Below are positions 24,191 through 33,422 of a DNA stretch of 33,422 bases, piece by piece. The notes under the pieces are model-generated. The model saw nothing but the letters and a program-made list of their open reading frames with translations, had not been told where the DNA came from and did not search any database. The DNA comes from Dongiaceae bacterium (GTDB lineage: Bacteria; Acidobacteriota; Polarisedimenticolia; Gp22-AA2). The number at the start of each line of letters is the position of its first letter. Within the stretch, counting starts at the first letter, position 1. Where the stretch lies: positions 1 through 33,422 of the forward strand of contig DATKFL010000278.1 of NCBI GenBank assembly GCA_035511355.1, read 5' to 3'. Made by a program: the position numbers and the translations under genes.

Positions 24191-24865
24191 TCAGGCGCCG
24201 GTCGCGGCGCGTGGCGCCTCGCCCACCGGCTGGCGGGTCTCGGCGGTGTCCTTGCCGCTGACGGCCTGCACCACGAGCGCCGCGGCGCCGCCCGATGCGG
24301 CCGGCAGCGCCACGTCCAGGAGCGCCCTTCCGGAGGGGTCGGTCTCCCCGGTCGAGAGGTTCTTCGGCTTGCCGGCCCGGGTCAGGAGGCGCACCCGCAC
24401 CTCCGCGCCGGCGACGCCGTCGCCGCTGTGCGCGCGGGTCACCAGCACTTCGACCTGCGCCGTGGCGCCGGCTTCGATGGCGCGCGGGCCGAGGATCGAC
24501 ACGACGAGCGGGTCGGGCCCCATTTCCGAGCGCAGGAAGTCGAGCACCACTTCGTCGAACGAGCGGCTGCTGATGATCCCCTCGCCGAACGGCCGCGGCT
24601 TCTGCTTGACCTCGAAGCGGCCGGCGCGCACGTCCTCGATGACGCCGTTGTGCTGCGCCTCGATCCGTTTGGCGATTTCGGCCTCGGGGAAGCCGGCGGC
24701 CTTCAGGTCGTCGTAACGCGATTGCCGCGCCGCCAGGATCTCGCCGCGCATGTAGACCAGGGTCTCGATGATCGGGTTCGAGGAGCCCTTGTCCTCGGTC
24801 TGCACGTGATAGACGCGCCCCGCGTGCTCGACGTCGGTGTTGTAGCCGGTGACCATCGCCGGCAT
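24191..24865 (-). CDS. Hypothetical protein: N-terminal [10 protein letters not shown]-containing domain plus a C-terminal beta-sandwich-like region
   Basis: In operon position, 8 nt upstream of thiS, with good G/C third-position bias. No family recognised. The C-terminal part ([10 protein letters not shown]...[17 protein letters not shown]) looks like a carboxypeptidase-regulatory/Ig-like beta-sandwich. The start is either ATG 24865 or ATG 24856. Confidence 0.6.
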
Positions 24866-26295: not shown

Positions 26296-27357
26296 GTGGA
26301 CGGGACCGCGGTCGTTCTGTGCGAGGGGCACTTCGGCGACACCGGCGGCAAGACGGCACACGGACTGGCGCGGCACACGGCGCGCTACAAGGTCCTGTCG
26401 GTCATCGATTCGACCCTCGCCGGACGCGACGCCGGGGAGCTTCTCGACGGCCGGGCGAGCGGCATTCCGATCGTCGCCGACCTCGGCGCGGCGGTCGCGC
26501 GGCACGGCCGTCCCGACTACCTCGTGGTGGGCGTCGCCACGCACGGCGGCGTCCTGCCGAAGGCCCTGCGCCCGGCGATCGCCGCGGCGCTCGGCACCGG
26601 CATCAACGTCGACTCGGGCCTGCACGAATTCCTCGGCGACGACTCCGAGTTCGCCCCGCTCGCGGCGAAGAGCGGCGCCCGCATCCGCGACGTGCGGCGC
26701 ACGCCGCCGCGATCGGCGATGCACGCCTTCACCGGGGGCATCCACGCGGTCGAGGCGCTCCGGGTCGCGGTCCTCGGCACCGACAGCGGCGTCGGCAAGC
26801 GCACCACCGCGGTGCGTCTCGTGCAGGCGCTGAACGCCGCCGGACGGCCGGCGGTGATGGTCGGCACCGGGCAGACCGGCTGGATGCAGGGAGCGCCCTA
26901 CTCGCTGATCCTCGACAGTCTCGTGAACGACTTCGTCTCGGGCGAGATCGAGCACCAGGTGTTGCGCGCCGCACGGGAAGCGCAGCCCGAGGTGATCGTG
27001 GTCGAGGGGCAGGGGTGTCTCACCCATCCGGCCTATCCGGGAGGGTTCGAAATCCTCGCCGGGGCGCGGCCGCAGTGCGTGGTCCTGCACCACGCCCCGG
27101 CGCGCCGGCACTACGACGGCTGGCCCGCCTTCCCCCTGGCGGGGCCGGAGCGCGAGCGCCAGGTGATCGAGCTCCTGGGTCCGTTCAGGGTGGCGGCGCT
27201 GACCATCAATCCCCTCGGCCTCGGGCTCGACGAGGCGCGTGACGCCGCGTCGAGCCTCGAGGCGTCGATGGGTCTGCCCTGCCGCGATCCGCTGCGCGAC
27301 GACCTCGGGCCGATCCTCGCCGCGCTCAAGGTTCCCGCGCGCGGCACGGCGCGATGA
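26296..27357 (+). CDS. DUF1611-family P-loop protein (possible D-glutamate N-acetyltransferase DgcN-like)
   Basis: GTDSGVGKRTT P-loop-like motif and DUF1611-like layout. GTG start with GGGAGG SD 5 nt upstream. The stop overlaps the downstream ATG (ATGA at 27354..27357). Confidence 0.7.
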   Translation: MDGTAVVLCEGHFGDTGGKTAHGLARHTARYKVLSVIDSTLAGRDAGELLDGRASGIPIVADLGAAVARHGRPDYLVVGVATHGGVLPKALRPAIAAALGTGINVDSGLHEFLGDDSEFAPLAAKSGARIRDVRRTPPRSAMHAFTGGIHAVEALRVAVLGTDSGVGKRTTAVRLVQALNAAGRPAVMVGTGQTGWMQGAPYSLILDSLVNDFVSGEIEHQVLRAAREAQPEVIVVEGQGCLTHPAYPGGFEILAGARPQCVVLHHAPARRHYDGWPAFPLAGPERERQVIELLGPFRVAALTINPLGLGLDEARDAASSLEASMGLPCRDPLRDDLGPILAALKVPARGTAR

Positions 27358-28430
27358 ACCGGATCGTCGCGTCGCGGGCGATCGAGAAGACCTTCCGGCT
27401 GCGCGAGGGATACCGCATCGCCGGGCACACCTTCACCAGCGCCACGATGGTCCTGCTCCGGCTCGAGACCGCCGACGGGCTGGCGGGGTTCGGCTGCGCG
27501 GCGCCGTTCGAGGAGGTGACCGGCGAGTCCCCCGCCGCGTCGCTCGCGGCGCTCCGCGACCGTCTCCTGCCGCTGGCGGCCGAGGCGGCCTCGACCGAGC
27601 CCTGCGCCCCGCTTCTCGATCGTGCCGCGGCGGTCGCGCCCGGCGCGCCCGCGGCCCTCGCCGCCTTCGACATGGCGCTGCACGACCTCGCGGCGCGGCG
27701 CGCCGGCGTGCCGCTCCACAGGATGCTCGGCGCCGCGCGCACCCGCATCGCCACCAGCGTCACGCTCGGCATCGAGGCGGATGTCGAGGCGGCGGTGGCC
27801 CGCGCGGTGCGCTGGGTCGCCGACGGGTATTTCATCCTCAAGCTGAAGGTGGGAGAGGACCGCGAAGCCGACGTGACGCTCGTGCGGCGCCTGCGCGAAC
27901 GCCTCGGCCCGGCCGTCCGGCTGCGCGCCGACGCCAACCAGGGGTACGACGAGGCCGAGGCCGTCCGCTTCCTGCGCGAGGTCGCGTCCTGCGATCTCGA
28001 GCTCCTGGAACAGCCGGTCGAGGCCGGCGACGACGCCCGGCTCCGGCGCGTGGCCGACGCGACGCCGATCCCGATCATGGCCGACGAATCGCTGCTGGGC
28101 GAAGCGGACGCGGCGCGGCTCGCGGGCGCGCGCGTCGTCGACCTGTTCAACGTCAAGCTGATGAAGTGCGGCGGGATCCGCCCCGGACTCGCGATGGCGC
28201 GGTACGCGCAGGCGGCCGGCATCGGCGTGATGGTCGGCTGCAACGACGAGTCGCGCATTTCGATCGCGGCCGGGCTGCACCTGGCGCTGTCGGCGCCGGC
28301 GATCGATCGCGTCGACCTCGACGGGCACCTCGATCTTCAGGACGACGTGGCGCGTGGCGGCTTCCGGGTCGACGCGGGCTGGCTCGCGCCGCTCGAGGAG
28401 CCGGGGCTCGGGGTCTCCGCCGACTTCTGA
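27354..28430 (+). CDS. Enolase-superfamily (MLE subgroup) dipeptide epimerase / N-acylamino-acid racemase-like enzyme
   Basis: KxK motif FILKLKVG; metal ligands in RADANQGY, LEQPV and MADESL; second catalytic Lys in FNVKLMKCGGI. Confidence 0.8.
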   Translation: MNRIVASRAIEKTFRLREGYRIAGHTFTSATMVLLRLETADGLAGFGCAAPFEEVTGESPAASLAALRDRLLPLAAEAASTEPCAPLLDRAAAVAPGAPAALAAFDMALHDLAARRAGVPLHRMLGAARTRIATSVTLGIEADVEAAVARAVRWVADGYFILKLKVGEDREADVTLVRRLRERLGPAVRLRADANQGYDEAEAVRFLREVASCDLELLEQPVEAGDDARLRRVADATPIPIMADESLLGEADAARLAGARVVDLFNVKLMKCGGIRPGLAMARYAQAAGIGVMVGCNDESRISIAAGLHLALSAPAIDRVDLDGHLDLQDDVARGGFRVDAGWLAPLEEPGLGVSADF

Positions 28431-29812
28431 GCCCGGCGCGGCCGCCCGCGCGTTCCCCTGAGTCGCAGACCGTAGCGCTGGATCTTGCGCTGCAACGTCC
28501 GGAGGCCGATGCCGAGCGACTTCGCCGCGTAGGTCCGGTTGCCGGCGTGCCGCAGGAGCGTGCGGCGGATGAGATCGCGCTCGAAGTCGTCGAGCGTCGC
28601 GCCGACCGGGGCCGCGTCGGCCTCCTCGGCGACTCCGCCGCGCAGCGCCTCCGGCAGGTCGGCCGCCTCGACCCAGGGGCCTGGCCGGGTGATCGCCGTG
28701 CTCTCGAGGACGTTCTTCAGCTCGCGCACGTTGCCGGGCCAGGAGTAGGACAGGATCGCGGTCACCGCGCTCTCGGCGAGACGGCGCGCCGGCAGGCCGT
28801 TGTCGCGGCAGATCTGATCGAGGAGCGACTGCGCCAGATCCGGGAGATCCTCGCGTCGTCGTCGGAGCGGCGGCACCCGGATGGTGATCACGTTGAAGCG
28901 GAAGTAGAGATCTTCGCGGAACCGGCCGGCCGCGATCAGCGCCTTGAGGTCGCGGTTGGTCGCGGCCAGCACGCGCACGTCGACCCGCACCGGGCGGGTC
29001 CCGCCGACCCGCATGAACTCGCGCTCCTCGAGGACGCGCAGGAGCTTCACCTGCGCCGCGGCGTCCATCTCGCCGATCTCGTCGAGCAGGATGGTCCCGC
29101 CGTGCGCCAGCTCGAACTTGCCGCGCTGGCGATCGACCGCCCCCGTGAACGCCCCCTTCTCGTGGCCGAACAGCTCGCTCTCGATGAGCATCGCCGGGAT
29201 CGCCGAGCAGTTGATGGCGATGAACGGCGCTCCCCGCCTGGCGGAGTTGTAGTGGATGGCCTTGGCGACCAGTTCCTTGCCGACGCCGCTCTCACCGATG
29301 ATCAGGACGGTGCTGCGCGCCGACGCGACCTGGAGCACCTGCTCGCGGACCTTCTGCATGCCGGGCGAGCGGCTCACGAGCGTCCCGGGGAGGTAGCGAC
29401 GCACCGTCTCCTGATGCAGGTCGCGAGCCCGGAGTTCGGCCTCGTGCCAGAGCAGGAGGCGTTCGACGCGCGCCGCCATCTCGGCGCGGGTGAGCGGCTT
29501 GATCAGGTAGTCGGAAGCGCCGCGCTGCAGCGCCGCGATCGCTTCGCGCACCTCCTCGGGGCGCGCCAGGATCAGAATCGAAGGCACGCGCGCGCCGGCC
29601 GCGAGCCGCGCCAGGAGATCGCCGCCGTCGGAGGAGCGCGCTCCGACGCCGATCATCGCCATGTCGAATTCGTCGCGCCGCGCCATGAGAAGCGCCGCAT
29701 CGGGATCGCTCGCGACACTCACCCTCAGACCGAGGGCCCGGAGCGCCGCCGCCTCGGCTTCGGCCTCGTCGGCCCGATCGACCAGCAGGATCTGCTTCCC
29801 TTCGAGCGACAT
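28337..29812 (-). CDS. Sigma-54-dependent transcriptional activator (NtrC family) whose receiver domain lacks the phospho-acceptor Asp
   Basis: Walker A GESGVGKE, ESELFGHEKGAFTGA (GAFTGA), an R-finger region and a C-terminal Fis-type HTH (AAKSLGIGLRTLQRKIQRYGL). In the receiver, EFDMAMIGVGARSSDG aligns with NtrC PDVLLSDIRMPGMDG, putting Gly at the Asp54 position. ATG 29812 is preferred; the track start 29863 is a GTG inside a palindrome. Confidence 0.85.
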   Translation of the reverse strand: MSLEGKQILLVDRADEAEAEAAALRALGLRVSVASDPDAALLMARRDEFDMAMIGVGARSSDGGDLLARLAAGARVPSILILARPEEVREAIAALQRGASDYLIKPLTRAEMAARVERLLLWHEAELRARDLHQETVRRYLPGTLVSRSPGMQKVREQVLQVASARSTVLIIGESGVGKELVAKAIHYNSARRGAPFIAINCSAIPAMLIESELFGHEKGAFTGAVDRQRGKFELAHGGTILLDEIGEMDAAAQVKLLRVLEEREFMRVGGTRPVRVDVRVLAATNRDLKALIAAGRFREDLYFRFNVITIRVPPLRRRREDLPDLAQSLLDQICRDNGLPARRLAESAVTAILSYSWPGNVRELKNVLESTAITRPGPWVEAADLPEALRGGVAEEADAAPVGATLDDFERDLIRRTLLRHAGNRTYAAKSLGIGLRTLQRKIQRYGLRLRGTRGRPRRAQKSAETPSPGSSSGASQPASTRKPPRATSS

Positions 29813-29848
29813 GCGCCACGTCTCCCCGGAGCGACCGAGACCAAAATG

Positions 29849-29863
29849 GTGCCATAGTGGCAC
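29849..29863. promoter_or_regulatory. 15-bp inverted repeat GTGCCA-TAG-TGGCAC; candidate activator binding site (UAS/operator)
   Basis: Perfect 6-N3-6 palindrome, 37-51 nt upstream of the activator's ATG and about 170 bp upstream of the divergent sigma-54 promoter. Its layout resembles NtrC-type sites (TGCACCA-N3-TGGTGCA). Confidence 0.4.
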
Positions 29864-30025
29864 GATAAAGTCACGGACTAAATCGCGTCATTCTGGCTGA
29901 TTCAGGCTTGCGGCACGCCCGCGGGTCGGGCGCGAGCCGTCGCCCCGATGGGGAGATCCCGGCAATGGGCCGCTGCTCAGGTAGTTCCGGCGGGTGGCCC
30001 GCCCGCACCGCCGCGCCGGGGCGAC

Positions 30026-30041
30026 TGGCAGCGAACTTGCT
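30026..30041 (+). promoter_or_regulatory. Sigma-54 (-24/-12) promoter
   Basis: TGGCAGCGAACTTGCT against the consensus TGGCAC-N5-TTGCW. GG (30027-28) and GC (30039-40) have the exact consensus spacing, with a single mismatch (C to G after TGGCA). Predicted TSS at about 30052, followed by SD GGGAGGG (30059..30065) and ATG 30071. Confidence 0.65.
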
Positions 30042-30070
30042 GCGCATGGCCTCAAACCGGGAGGGTTGGG

Positions 30071-30274
30071 ATGAAGACCAAGACGAAAGCGCGCGTCGCT
30101 CGGAAACCCAGGAAGAATCCCTACGGCATGATCGATTTCAGCTTCGGCGACATCCAGTACCAGATCGACCCGTCGCGGCGGAAGGTGTACCACCGCTGGG
30201 TGGAGGTCGAGACCTCCAAGACGGCGCTCATCATGGGCGCCTTCAGCAGCGTGGCCGCGGCAGTCGCCAAGTAA
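30071..30274 (+). CDS. Unrecognised 67-aa protein (basic N-terminus, small hydrophobic C-terminal tail), sigma-54-dependent by position
   Basis: Strong SD 5 nt upstream. Third codon positions are overwhelmingly G/C, as in neighbouring genes. TAA stop with a terminator downstream. Sequence: MKTKTKARVARKPRKNPYGMIDFSFGDIQYQIDPSRRKVYHRWVEVETSKTALIMGAFSSVAAAVAK. No family recognised. Confidence 0.55.
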   Translation: MKTKTKARVARKPRKNPYGMIDFSFGDIQYQIDPSRRKVYHRWVEVETSKTALIMGAFSSVAAAVAK

Positions 30275-30354
30275 GTTCGGAGAGGCCCTTCAAGCACCAG
30301 CCCGCGAGGGCTGAGTTCGTTCCAAAGACTTCGCACGGCATCACACCACGAGCC

Positions 30355-30397
30355 AGAGCCGCTTCTGTTCCCATGAAGCGGCTCTCCGTGTTTTTGG
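30355..30397 (+). terminator. Rho-independent-like terminator shared by the small ORF and the convergent EAL gene
   Basis: 11-bp perfect stem AGAGCCGCTTC (30355..30365) pairing with GAAGCGGCTCT (30375..30385), 9-nt loop, then CCGTG and TTTTT (30391..30395). An A-run on the opposite strand precedes the stem, so it could act bidirectionally. Confidence 0.55.
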
Positions 30398-30409
30398 GGT
30401 CCGTTCGGA

Positions 30410-31765
30410 TCAGCCGATGACCAGCAGGTTCGGCGTCGGGAAGGCCTCGCCGGGACGCGCGAAGAGGTACCCCTGCGCGTAGCGCACGCCAATCTTCTGC
30501 AGGCAGCGCAGCTCGTCCTCGGTCTCGACCCCTTCCGCGATGAGGGTCGTGCCGCTCGACGACGAGAAACGGGTGATGGTGGCGGTGAGGTCCTGCTTGA
30601 TCAGGTGCAGGTGGATATCGCGGATCAGGGCCATGTCGATCTTGATGTAGTCGGGCCGCAGTTCGGCGATCGACTTGAGCCCCGAGTATCCCGACCCGAC
30701 GTCGTCGACCGCCAGTCGAAACCCGTTGAACCGGAAGTAGTCGAGCATCTGCCGGAACGCCTCGTGATCGTGCACCGCGGCGTGCTCGGTGATCTCGAGG
30801 ACCACCTGGGTCGGCTTGAGGTCGGCCTCCTTGAGCAGATCGAGAATCGCCTCGGAGCGCAGCACCGGGTCGTAGATCGAGTCGGGCTCGATGTTGAGGA
30901 ACAGGAGCTGGTCGGATGCCAGGCCGCGCACGCCGCGGATGGCGCGATCGCGGCAGAGCCGCTCCAGCCGCCAGATCGAGTCGTTGTCGTACGCCGCCTT
31001 GAACAGGGCGTCCGGCCCGGGGAAGGCGTCGGTCGTCAGGCGCGTCAGCGCCTCGAAGCCGATGCCGCGCTTCTCCACGAGGTCGATCACCGGCTGGTAG
31101 ACGGAACGGATCGCGCCGGTCTTGAGGACCTCCTTGAGGAGCATCGCCACCTTGCGCTGCTCGCGGGTGCGCTCGCGGATCGAGTCGGCAAACGCCTCCT
31201 CGAGCGCGGCATAGACGCGCCGCTCGAAGCGCACCGCCGGGTCCTGCGCCAGGATGGCGCAGCCGATGTAGACGCCGAAGCGCTCCTGCACGCTCGCCGG
31301 CAGCCGGTCGCGCACGAACCGCCCGAGACGCGAGGCCACCCGGCGACGGACCTTGTCGATGTCGGGATACGAGACCTCGCTCTTGCCGCGCGGGGGCGCC
31401 AGGAGCACGACGAAGGCGTTGCCGCTGATCATCACCTCGGCCACGTCGTCCTCGCGCCGCAGCGCCTCCTGCTTCACCTGCACCAGGAACGAGGCGATGT
31501 CGCGCACCAGCGACTCGTACCCCTGGCGGCCGAGGGTCTGCTCCATCCGCTCGTTCTGCAGGATGCTGATCGACAGGAGACCGAGCTCGTGCGCCTCGCG
31601 CAGCATGTTGCGGATGCGCCCGAGCAGGAGCGGCACGGTCGGCAGGTCGGCGACCCGATCGTAGAGGAATTCCGCCACCTCGTTGCCGGTATCGGGGTGG
31701 AACTCCCCCCGGGCGTGCAGCTCTTCGAGGAACTTGCGACGGCGGGTGCGGGCGCTCAGCGGCAT
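30410..31765 (-). CDS. c-di-GMP phosphodiesterase: degenerate GGDEF domain (SGNAF) plus an intact EAL domain
   Basis: EAL-domain catalytic motifs are present (FEALTR, NIEP, LEITE, DDVGSGYS, IKID, AEGVETE, QGYLF). The N-terminal domain has a GGDEF-like fold with SGNAF in place of GG[D/E]EF. Starts 5 nt after the upstream GGDEF gene. Confidence 0.85.
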   Translation of the reverse strand: MPLSARTRRRKFLEELHARGEFHPDTGNEVAEFLYDRVADLPTVPLLLGRIRNMLREAHELGLLSISILQNERMEQTLGRQGYESLVRDIASFLVQVKQEALRREDDVAEVMISGNAFVVLLAPPRGKSEVSYPDIDKVRRRVASRLGRFVRDRLPASVQERFGVYIGCAILAQDPAVRFERRVYAALEEAFADSIRERTREQRKVAMLLKEVLKTGAIRSVYQPVIDLVEKRGIGFEALTRLTTDAFPGPDALFKAAYDNDSIWRLERLCRDRAIRGVRGLASDQLLFLNIEPDSIYDPVLRSEAILDLLKEADLKPTQVVLEITEHAAVHDHEAFRQMLDYFRFNGFRLAVDDVGSGYSGLKSIAELRPDYIKIDMALIRDIHLHLIKQDLTATITRFSSSSGTTLIAEGVETEDELRCLQKIGVRYAQGYLFARPGEAFPTPNLLVIG

Positions 31766-31770
31766 CGCGA

Positions 31771-33069
31771 TCAGCCGTTCTGCACGTTGTACACGGGGTC
31801 CTCGGTCTCGTCGGAGAAGTACTTCGGCTCGCTCGCGAACACCTTGTCGCGGCCGGCGCGCTTGGCGCGGTAGAGCGCGGCATCGGCGGCGGCGATGAGG
31901 TCGGCGCCCGCCAGACCGTCATCCGGATAGGTGGCGACGCCGCCGCTCAGCGAGACCCTGCGAAGCGGCTGGGCTTCGCGGTTCGGGAAGGGATGATTCG
32001 CGACCAGGGCCCGGATCCGCTCGGCCTGCTCCATCGCGCCCTCCTTGGGCGCATGCCCCAGGAGGACGATGAACTCCTCGCCACCGTAGCGCGCCGCGAA
32101 ATCGTCCGGTCGCAGCGCGCTCCGGACCAGCTCCCCGGTGGTGCGCAGCACCTCGTCGCCTGCCTGGTGCCCCTGGGTGTCGTTGTAGTGCTTGAAGTTG
32201 TCCAGGTCGAAGATGAACACCGAGAACGGATGGTGCCCCTTGCTCGCCTCGAGGATGACGCTCGACAGCCTCTCGAGGAAGAAGCGCTTGTTGAACAGCT
32301 TCGTCAACCCGTCGCAGTTCGCCATCTCCTGCGTCTTGGTGAACAGGTCGTGGTTGTAGAGGGCGATGCTCCCCTGGTCGGCGATCAGGCCGAGGATCGC
32401 CTTCTCGTGCTTGTAGTGCCGGGTGATGCCGCCGACGCTGATGATGCCGCGCACCTTGTCCTCGTGCATCATCGGCGCGCACAGCTCGATGCGGAACGGG
32501 AAGTGCGACGGCATCTCGAAGTTCGCTCCCGCGAGGCGCTTTTCGCGGATGAAGTCGTCGGTGTCCATCGCCATGCCGGTCTGCGCCGCCCAGCCGATGC
32601 GACCCTCGCCCGGACCGACGAGAAAGGACTTCGGGAAGTCGGGCGGCAACCCCAGCTGCTGGACCAGCGCGAACTTCCCGAGCCGCTCCTCGAGCAGGAA
32701 GATGAGGATCTGCGAAGGCGCGAACATCTGCTCGACGACCCGGATGACGTGCATCGGAATCTCGCGCCGCGCGATCCGGCTGCTCATCTTCTTGGTGTAC
32801 TCGGGAAGCAGCTGGAACAGGTTGGCCAGCGCCTGGTTGTCGCTCTCGAGGCGGCTGATCGTCTTCTGCAGGTCGCGCACCTGGCTGGAGGTGGCGTCGG
32901 GGCGGGCCGGGGCGATGCGACGCCCCGAGGAACGGAGGCGCGCGATGCAGAAACCGACGATCAGCGCGACGATGGCCGCCGCGGCCGCGGGGGCCCATGC
33001 CGGCAGGTCGCTCCATGTGAAGTAGGTGTCGCCCACCACGCCTCGCGCCTCCCCGTCCGACAGCCTCAT
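31771..33069 (-). CDS. Membrane-anchored GAF-GGDEF diguanylate cyclase
   Basis: One TM helix (WAPAAAAAIVALIVGFCIA), a coiled-coil, a GAF-like region, an intact GGEEF and the I-site RPDD five residues upstream. ATG 33069 is preferred over the longer track ORF start at 33231. Confidence 0.85.
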   Translation of the reverse strand: MRLSDGEARGVVGDTYFTWSDLPAWAPAAAAAIVALIVGFCIARLRSSGRRIAPARPDATSSQVRDLQKTISRLESDNQALANLFQLLPEYTKKMSSRIARREIPMHVIRVVEQMFAPSQILIFLLEERLGKFALVQQLGLPPDFPKSFLVGPGEGRIGWAAQTGMAMDTDDFIREKRLAGANFEMPSHFPFRIELCAPMMHEDKVRGIISVGGITRHYKHEKAILGLIADQGSIALYNHDLFTKTQEMANCDGLTKLFNKRFFLERLSSVILEASKGHHPFSVFIFDLDNFKHYNDTQGHQAGDEVLRTTGELVRSALRPDDFAARYGGEEFIVLLGHAPKEGAMEQAERIRALVANHPFPNREAQPLRRVSLSGGVATYPDDGLAGADLIAAADAALYRAKRAGRDKVFASEPKYFSDETEDPVYNVQNG

Positions 33070-33212: not shown

Positions 33213-33422
33213 ATGAAAGAACGCACAGCATCGCGCGGTGGTCCCCGCATCCCGGTGGCGGTCAAGGGCACCCTGCGCGTGGGGGAGGGCCCCGATCCGC
33301 GCGTGCTGCCGTTGGTCACCCGCGATCTCGGGGCGGGTGGCGCGCAGGTCAGCCTCGCCGAACCGATCCCGGTCGGAACGCGCGCCCTCCTGCGCCTGTC
33401 GATCCCGGCCGAGAAGGGTCAG
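33213..33422 (+). CDS. PilZ-domain protein (c-di-GMP receptor candidate); 3' end cut by the window edge
   Basis: RGGPR (RxxxR) followed about 25 residues later by DLGAGG, a variant of D/NxSxxG with Gly in place of Ser. The frame is open to the window end. Confidence 0.6.
   Translation, partial: MKERTASRGGPRIPVAVKGTLRVGEGPDPRVLPLVTRDLGAGGAQVSLAEPIPVGTRALLRLSIPAEKGQ

Follow-up and report, generated by a model that had tools for sequence, protein, structure and literature searches.

We propose that two divergent genes on contig DATKFL010000278.1 of Dongiaceae bacterium, a member of the Acidobacteriota (Polarisedimenticolia), belong to one regulatory circuit. The whole stretch of this contig that was analysed, 33,422 nucleotides with a GC content of 71.5%, is called the window here. 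The circuit is probably a compact enhancer-dependent unit in which a phosphorylation-independent activator of the sigma-54 class drives the expression of a single small protein, and which is conserved as a module in Acidobacteriota. The whole account rests on comparative sequence evidence. In the mechanism that we propose, the activator would bind two inverted-repeat sites (TGYCA-N3-TGRC, 36 bp apart) located just upstream of its own gene. From these sites it would contact the sigma-54 holoenzyme via its GAFTGA loop and would use ATP to open the sigma-54 promoter. The product would be a monocistronic mRNA of about 340 nt, comprising a 19-nt leader, an open reading frame (ORF) of 67 codons and a structured 3' untranslated region (3'UTR) of about 120 nt that ends in a terminator. 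The activator would be controlled by a ligand, by a partner protein or simply by its own level, rather than by phosphorylation, and the small protein would be the effector output. The parts of the unit, from the activator gene to the small gene, are the following:

28337..29812, minus strand: sigma-54 activator (bacterial enhancer-binding protein, bEBP) of 491 aa, with pseudo-receiver, AAA+ domain, Fis-type helix-turn-helix (HTH) and Arg-rich tail; Pfam Response_reg, Sigma54_activat, AAA_lid_14 and HTH_8
29849..29863, no strand assigned: predicted upstream activator site 1, the palindrome GTGCCA-TAG-TGGCAC, GTGCCATAGTGGCAC; matches the family consensus
29885..29900, no strand assigned: predicted upstream activator site 2, GCGTCATTCTGGCTGA, 36 bp from site 1; conserved as a pair with site 1
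30026..30041, plus strand: sigma-54 promoter TGGCAG-CGAAC-TTGCT, TGGCAGCGAACTTGCT, with the -24 GG at 30027-28 and the -12 GC at 30038-39; conserved, and unique in the window
30059..30065, plus strand: Shine-Dalgarno sequence GGGAGGG, read from the sequence
30071..30274, plus strand: gene for the 67-aa protein, from ATG 30071 to the end of the stop codon at 30274; based on homologues, coding signature and the AlphaFold2 core

The strongest support for the proposal comes from the pairing of the two genes in related genomes. The comparison set comprised about 45 non-redundant related loci (45 for the promoter counts), with about 6 kb of DNA examined on either side of each, and the activator and receiver columns were counted over 35 orthologues. 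In clade 1 the gene order is SmpB, ThiG, ThiS, bMG3-like, DUF1611, MR_MLE, activator, small ORF, EAL, GAF-GGDEF and, in some loci, PilZ, and the synteny extends over the whole region from SmpB to FdhD. Since the whole clade-1 neighbourhood is syntenic, co-occurrence there proves little. In L042-L052 and L054-L056 the clade-1 neighbours are gone, and an activator of 48-58% identity lies divergently upstream of the small ORF; the short upstream stretch available for L055 gave no activator match. Wherever the upstream sequence was long enough, a homologue of the activator gene was the divergent neighbour of the small ORF, and this holds also for the clades that lack EAL, GGDEF, MR_MLE and DUF1611. 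Since the activator is still adjacent where the GGDEF and EAL neighbours are gone, the two genes are best regarded as a dedicated module, in agreement with the original prediction, made from the window alone, of a dedicated regulator-target pair. The one constant partner of the small gene thus appears to be the activator with its sites and promoter. A word-indexed search with the receiver and linker of the activator, made for orthologues that lack the small ORF, gave nine matches, which were mostly fragments. In the window there is no further gene on the strand of the small ORF between the terminator and the convergent EAL gene. In six clade-2 loci the small ORF is followed on its own strand by a large AhpC/TSA-redoxin-like gene, and a search for a terminator between the two found none; the two genes may form an operon that hints at a link to redox or envelope stress.

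The small ORF itself proves, by several comparative measures, to be a real gene that encodes a real conserved protein family. Its GC content at codon positions 1, 2 and 3 is 0.51, 0.45 and 0.91, and the strong G/C bias at third positions, the GGGAGGG and the 11-bp terminator stem that had been described for it were all found where they had been placed. A word-indexed search returned 54 clusters of about 66 aa at 60-94% identity, a full HMMER scan of 1.84 billion representatives returned 32 clusters at 50% identity, and a profile search returned 839 clusters at 90% identity, with lengths of about 60-70 aa. All of the named homologues are called "hypothetical" and none carries a Pfam domain. The family was seen solely in metagenome contigs of Acidobacteriota type. 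The 67-aa protein had no match above the curated threshold in Pfam, NCBIfam, PHROGs, PADLOC or PDB, which agrees with its earlier description as a member of no recognisable family. The original prediction had also made its case depend on the existence of homologues with a conserved reading frame, and both were found. Among the 36 loci recovered from GTDB genomes, pairwise differences by codon position were 0.24/0.19/0.41, and synonymous changes were 2-4 times commoner when the annotated frame was read than when the frame was shifted. A core motif, (V/I)xFxFxxxxYQID(P)xRRKVYxR(W/F)(V/I)E(V/I)ETxK, is almost invariant in the family, and the Lys/Arg-rich N-terminus and the C-terminal end vary across it.

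All 36 of these loci are in metagenome-assembled genomes (MAGs) of Acidobacteriota type, namely Polarisedimenticolia, "gp22" and bins labelled Terriglobia. A few bins with the small ORF carry other labels: the contigs of L019, L020 and L021 are labelled Candidatus Cryosericum, Patescibacteria group and Verrucomicrobiia, respectively. Since they share the synteny of the Polarisedimenticolia loci at about 70% protein identity, these labels are probably binning errors, that is, mis-binned or mislabelled MAGs.

The promoter and the two upstream sites are conserved, and the comparison shows them to be functional elements and not products of chance. At 30026-30041 a GG and a GC stand 10 bp apart in a TGGCAC-N5-TTGCW-like context, and TGGCAGCGAACTTGCT is the sole match to TGGCA-N6-TTGC in the window with one mismatch allowed. 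When the homologous loci were anchored at the YQ codon of the small ORF, the promoter element was found at a fixed position, -115 to -172 from that codon, in 43 of the 45 non-redundant loci, against a background of 29 matches elsewhere in 850 kb (0.034 per kb). The close loci have TGGCA(G/A)-N5-TTGC at 121-144 nt upstream of the YQ codon in all but one case. The distant loci L040 and L042-L052 have TGG(T/C)(A/G)(C/T)G-N4-TTGA (TGGYRYG-N4-TTGA) about 120-170 nt upstream of it, and in clade 3 the form is again TGGCA-N6-TTGC. Both the promoter and the palindrome had been predicted from the window, and both are present. The palindrome proved to be only the first of two sites, the second of which (29885..29900) had been missed. 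The family consensus of these sites is cTGTCA-N3-TGRCG (TGYCA-N3-TGRC in its general form) and is found in nearly all loci. The sites are paired with a spacing of 35-36 bp in 23 of 23 clade-1 loci and of 29-34 bp in 11 of 11 clade-2 loci, and sites 1 and 2 are the only such pair in the window. They are about 160-200 bp upstream of the sigma-54 promoter, and the remaining intergenic DNA is poorly conserved. No match to the consensus of an IHF-like site is present between site 2 and the promoter, and a consensus scan gave no sigma-70 promoter for the activator gene. Since site 1 is located 37-51 bp upstream of the activator's own ATG, it is plausible that occupancy of the sites would also autoregulate the activator gene.

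Two further promoter-like patterns were seen. A second, loose sigma-54 pattern match, TGGTGATCACGTTGA, lies on the plus strand at 28882-28896, inside the activator gene, and several orthologous loci have it at the corresponding position. Since it is antisense within the conserved AAA+ coding stretch, conservation of the protein most likely accounts for it. The clade-3 loci L054 and L056-L059 share a conserved element, TTGACATTTC...AACTTA, between the upstream sites and the sigma-54 promoter; it lies on the strand of the small ORF and is similar to a sigma-70 promoter. One of these loci, L058, has this element and has neither a sigma-54 promoter nor an adjacent activator.

The activator had been described as a genuine sigma-54 activator on the basis of its GESGVGKE, GAFTGA and Fis-type HTH sequences. 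All three were found, and the Pfam matches agree, with Response_reg weak (40.9 bits), Sigma54_activat (PF00158) at 2.8e-70, AAA_lid_14, and HTH_8 at 7.2e-13. The sequence thus has what defines a bEBP: an AAA+ domain with Walker A and B motifs, a GAFTGA loop, and a C-terminal HTH with candidate upstream sites. Against NCBIfam, no equivalog reached its cut-off; AtoC, NtrC and others were far below theirs, and that of FlbD was likewise not reached. The parts of the protein are the following:

29453..29812, minus strand: degenerate receiver domain, aa 1-120, from alignments to PDB receivers and to CheY, NtrC and PleD
28880..29377, minus strand: AAA+ sigma-54 interaction domain, from Pfam and motifs
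29273-29296, minus strand: Walker A, GESGVGKE, aa 173-180, motif present
29138-29155, minus strand: GAFTGA sigma-54 contact loop, aa 220-225, motif present
29069-29092, minus strand: Walker B, ILLDEIGE, aa 241-248, motif present
28472..28597, minus strand: HTH_8 (Fis-type) DNA-binding domain, aa 406-447, from Pfam
28433..28450, minus strand: AT-hook-like RGRPRR, aa 455-460, directly after the HTH; motif, with an Arg-rich patch kept family-wide

The Arg-rich patch after the HTH (GRGRRP, for example) is present in nearly all clade-1 and clade-2 orthologues of the activator, and it may add minor-groove contacts beside the AT-rich flanks of the upstream sites. Beyond it, at 28337-28430, the activator gene and a convergent MR_MLE gene of the enolase superfamily overlap in antiparallel orientation, the final 31 codons of the former with the 3' end of the latter. 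Close relatives that have this overlap also conserve the tail ...PSPGSS...PPRATSS. Since L025 and L041, which have no MR_MLE gene, do not have that tail, its conservation looks like a by-product of the MR_MLE gene.

The receiver domain is the part of the activator that bears on its input. With CheY, NtrC and the first domain of PleD as references, the five catalytic positions of the window's receiver are D12, R13, G55, A83 and K105. Alignments to solved receivers (PleD D1 and 3q9s) and to CheY and NtrC place Gly55 in the column of the acceptor Asp (CheY D57), and they show an acidic pair that reads D12-R13, Ala83 at the Thr position (T87) and Lys105 kept at the position of K109. These are the four features that had been read from the sequence by comparison with NtrC, and the alignment that was to decide whether the Asp is missing gave the same answer. 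The best solved-receiver matches include PleD, a protein whose second domain is a pseudo-receiver. Across the 35 orthologues the acceptor column holds G in 11, D in 14, A in 5, P in 2, F in 1 and S in 1, Ala predominates in the Thr column, the second acidic (Mg-binding) position is seldom acidic, and the full D-D-D-T-K quintet was found in none. The phospho-acceptor chemistry of the receiver is thus not conserved across the family. Aspartyl phosphorylation, which the original prediction had also dismissed, is in our judgement very unlikely to be the input of the activator.

A version of that input could still be imagined in which the receiver remains a phospho-acceptor, either through an unconventional chemistry or just in those lineages in which the Asp is present, and an unlinked kinase controls the module. 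It would draw on the 14 orthologues with an Asp acceptor, six of which have Thr or Ser at the T position, and on the K position, which is commonly Lys or Arg. The window protein itself has Gly55, Arg13 and Ala83, and the residue that would bind Mg is usually missing from the family. Even close relatives differ at the acceptor, which changes among G, A, P, S, F and D as a site under no constraint would. Among the genes within about 6 kb, in the window or in L001-L011, none was found with a HisKA or HATPase_c domain. We regard this version as extremely improbable.

The neighbours of the pair had suggested another input. In all clade-1 loci and in L041 the convergent neighbours include EAL and GAF-GGDEF genes, and in several also PilZ, so that the activator might sense cyclic di-GMP (c-di-GMP) as FleQ or VpsR does, which would tie the small gene to these neighbours. 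FleQ of P. aeruginosa likewise has a receiver that is incompetent for phosphorylation, and it holds c-di-GMP through R144 (linker), R185 (post-Walker A) and R334, plus E330 (PMC10723142). The FleQ AAA+ reference sequence was verified against PDB 5EXP and aligned to 35 family members. In the window's activator the columns of R144, R185 and R334 hold G, K and Q and that of E330 holds S, and clade-1 orthologues have at most one of the three arginines. The pair also persists in clades 2 and 3 without a GGDEF or EAL neighbour, and within clade 1 the region from SmpB to FdhD is syntenic as a whole, which makes the linkage non-specific. Since the contact residues differ and the GGDEF/EAL linkage is lost in the other clades, a FleQ-style mechanism lacks support, and this part of the original prediction was not borne out. 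A c-di-GMP site of other than the FleQ type is possible; overall, sensing of c-di-GMP by the activator seems highly unlikely.

The small protein is predicted to begin with a basic, disordered tail (net charge +8) and to fold into a beta-beta-beta-(beta)-alpha core, after which its C-terminal end is variable. From a diverse alignment, AlphaFold2 gave a predicted local distance difference test score of 92-94 over residues 21-60 and low confidence for the first 20 residues, with strands at 21-25, 28-33 and 38-41, a short bridge at 44-45 and a helix at 48-66. The structure prediction that had been proposed for the protein thus yielded a confident core, and one for which Foldseek found no structural neighbour. 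The "small-residue hydrophobic tail" that had been described is in fact the end of the predicted C-terminal helix, where the sequence is variable. Since that helix is polar or charged in other clades, the idea of a membrane peptide was rejected. Over 156 family members the mean net charge of the N-terminal tail is +5.8 and the core is approximately neutral; the tails of clade 3 are longer, rich in Lys, Ala and Pro, and resemble histone H1. It is most likely that the small protein combines a beta/alpha core for protein-protein contact or oligomerisation with a Lys/Arg-rich tail for a polyanionic partner. Our leading guess for that partner is nucleic acid.

Profile searches of PDB sequences with the small-protein family gave nothing at E ≤ 10, and known folds were considered one by one. 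Pfam searches at E ≤ 1 with each member gave recurrent matches below threshold to Tis1_ImmP, which provides immunity to the (p)ppApp-synthetase toxin Tas1. They cover residues 21-50 and came from 21 of 34 members, with a best E of 3.9e-4 and a cut-off of 27 bits. The N-terminal (dimerisation) domain of Lsr2 was matched, also below threshold, by 5 of 34. A Tis1-like immunity protein was rejected: the matches recur but stay sub-threshold, 6OX6 is outside the best 50 Foldseek matches, and the nearby genes that were checked include no alarmone-synthetase toxin. An Lsr2-like dimerisation domain was also rejected, with an hhalign probability of 26% that covers only the 22 columns of the FxFxxxxYxID beta-hairpin and a topology that differs beyond the hairpin. 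The Lsr2 structure 4E1P is likewise outside the best 50 Foldseek matches of the small protein, all of which have E>1. For a PC4/Sub1-like fold that binds single-stranded DNA, the Foldseek alignments were poor (template modelling score about 0.3, root-mean-square deviation 8-9 Å).

The same similarities bear on a different role for the small protein, that of a feedback partner (anti-activator or co-activator) which binds the activator and supplies the missing input. PspA binds PspF as such a partner, and the strict divergent pairing in three clades would suit an arrangement of this kind, as would the recurrent sub-threshold matches to protein-binding or dimerisation modules (Tis1_ImmP and the Lsr2 N-terminal domain). 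It is also known that bEBPs with degenerate receivers can be run by partner proteins, as FlbD is by FliX (PMC3096577). Such a regulator would need targets beyond its own modulator, and none is visible in the 33 kb; the strongly basic tail would be left unexplained, and the protein has no similarity to PspA, FliX or FleN. The Tis1 and Lsr2 similarities are, as noted, sub-threshold, and neither structure is among the best 50 Foldseek matches. We therefore consider a feedback partner possible but unlikely, and retain the effector role as the preferred one.

Several points weigh against the unit as we have drawn it. The relatives are all uncultured MAGs, and the transcription start near 30052 is only inferred. 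In clade 2 the -12 element of the putative promoter is TTGA instead of TTGC. The Asp acceptors in 14 of 35 orthologues, some of them accompanied by Thr, mean that phosphorylation could still operate in some lineages. For the small protein, the best Foldseek matches of the model had E values of 1.0-1.3 (PDB) and 0.26 (BFVD) and gave no structural neighbour. The guess of a nucleic acid partner rests on charge and composition, and the conserved sheet of the protein bears the invariant acidic residues E45 and E47.

The region downstream of the small ORF holds two hairpins:

30285..30313, plus strand: 3'UTR motif GCCCTTCAA, followed by hairpin 1 (CAGCCC-GCGA-GGGCTG, 30298-30313); conserved in clade 1
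30355..30396, plus strand: hairpin 2, the intrinsic terminator, AGAGCCGCTTC / loop TGTTCCCAT / GAAGCGGCTCT, followed by a T run; stem conserved

The 3'UTR of clade 1 has a constant order, namely a GCCYTTCA motif, a hairpin with a GNGA loop, a variable CA-rich spacer and the terminator. The terminator has an 11-bp stem (30355-30365 / 30375-30385) with a T run after it, and this stem, GAGCCGCTTC/GAAGCGGCTC, and the loop GGTnnYCAT are almost invariant in the clade. Across 24 loci the identity of the hairpin-2 stem is 94.6%, compared with 86% for codon positions 1 and 2 of the coding core, 66% for position 3 and 44% for the spacer. Hairpins occur at the same place in L001, L005, L014, L017-L019, L022-L026, L028-L037 and L039. 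Hairpin 1 (CAGCCC/GGGCTG) is swapped for different hairpins in four loci, with four pairs that show two-sided compensatory changes. The 3'UTR folds with a z of -3.2. Hairpin 2 is found in exactly one copy per locus, always 3' of the small ORF, which rules out a dispersed repeat. An antisense ORF on the minus strand, starting from the "CAT" in the hairpin-2 loop with GGAGAG upstream, was considered as the cause of the invariant stem and rejected: its lengths range from 8 to 73 aa, its frames differ, and the ATG is missing in 4 of 24 loci, which have CGT or CAG instead.

The conservation of the hairpins suggests a function at the RNA level beyond termination. One form that this could take, compatible with the unit proposed above, is a conserved 3'UTR that serves as a regulatory RNA or a protein-binding element, making the transcript a dual-function one. 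A stem more conserved than the coding core, a first hairpin kept through compensatory replacements, the single copy per locus, the fold z and the failure of an antisense ORF to account for the conservation all speak for it. There is also a precedent for a sigma-54-dependent 3'UTR RNA in GlnZ, a small RNA released from the NtrC/sigma-54-dependent glnA mRNA (PMC9731577). The element of the window resembles such RNAs as a conserved, structured 3'UTR that ends in the mRNA's own terminator, on a transcript that depends on a bEBP and sigma-54. It differs from them in that it has no sequence relationship to GlnZ and is confined to one clade. On the other side, clades 2 and 3 have the module without the hairpin element; a permissive Rfam scan of 29700-30500 gave nothing; and the invariant stem offers no covariation support. 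Complementarity to a target was not found in a quick manual look at the 5' end of the activator gene, with no systematic search made. An RNA output is thus a tentative proposal with a small chance of being right. Rather less probable still, in our estimate, is an Acidobacteriota-specific dual-output switch in which a sigma-54 activator independent of phosphorylation drives one short transcript with two products, the first a new small fold of basic tail and beta3-alpha core that would act as a nucleoid- or RNA-associated factor or as a partner of the activator, and the second a regulatory 3'UTR hairpin RNA of invariant sequence.

Each regulatory part of the proposed enhancer-dependent unit has known counterparts: the activator is a bEBP, its pseudo-receiver is matched in kind by those of FleQ and FlbD, and tandem upstream sites and -24/-12 promoters are familiar elements. 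The standard example of an NtrC-family bEBP with tandem upstream sites is NtrC at glnAp2. The activator of the window shares with this family the REC / AAA+(GAFTGA) / Fis-HTH architecture, the two dyad sites about three helical turns apart and well upstream of a GG-N10-GC promoter, and the overlap of these sites with the regulator's own upstream region. Unlike NtrC, it has no acceptor Asp, second acidic residue or Thr in its receiver and no adjacent kinase, its target is a single small gene, and an Arg-rich, AT-hook-like tail comes after its HTH. The divergent PspF-pspA units are similar in that the activator is divergent from the sigma-54 promoter of a small protein, with possible feedback. 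PspF has no receiver domain, whereas the activator here has one, and the small protein has no PspA match in Pfam. With FleQ of P. aeruginosa and FlbD of Caulobacter the activator shares a degenerate receiver that has been kept, and control would be expected to come from a ligand or partner and not from a kinase (PMC10723142, PMC3096577). It differs from FleQ in the missing c-di-GMP arginines, and from both in that no FleN- or FliX-like gene is nearby, there is no flagellar context and the FlbD cut-off of NCBIfam is not reached. What is new is an Acidobacteriota-restricted activator subfamily that is tied to an unannotated small-protein family and to an unusually conserved 3'UTR hairpin.

Soils and sediments are rich in Acidobacteriota, yet, to our knowledge, almost nothing is known of gene regulation in these bacteria. 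The module would provide a clean sigma-54 circuit for this phylum, with a site consensus, a promoter (including the -12 TTGA variant in one clade) and a single target, and it would supply an activator family whose receiver has lost its phospho-acceptor chemistry. It also draws attention to a widespread unannotated small-protein family (the 839 clusters mentioned above) with a confident predicted fold and no structural neighbour, and to the unusually conserved hairpin in the 3'UTR. The current understanding is not overturned by these findings, which are useful for annotation and as a starting point for experiments.

Some minor observations concern the neighbouring genes. The stretches 24191-24856 (minus strand) and 26296-28430 (plus strand) of the window hold a bMG3-like gene and the DUF1611 and MR_MLE pair. 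The true start of the bMG3-like gene is probably M106 of the listed ORF. This gene was considered as a third partner of the module and rejected, being linked in clade 1 and L041 only. In L025, L027 and L041 the bMG3-like gene is directly downstream of the activator, and in the window's clade DUF1611 and MR_MLE stand between the two, which suggests that the DUF1611 and MR_MLE pair is an insertion. At the other end, a PilZ-domain gene begins at ATG 33213 on the plus strand (33213-33422) and is cut by the end of the window. Since the longest GGDEF ORF, with its start at 33231, would overlap the PilZ gene, translation of the GGDEF protein probably begins further downstream, near 33069.

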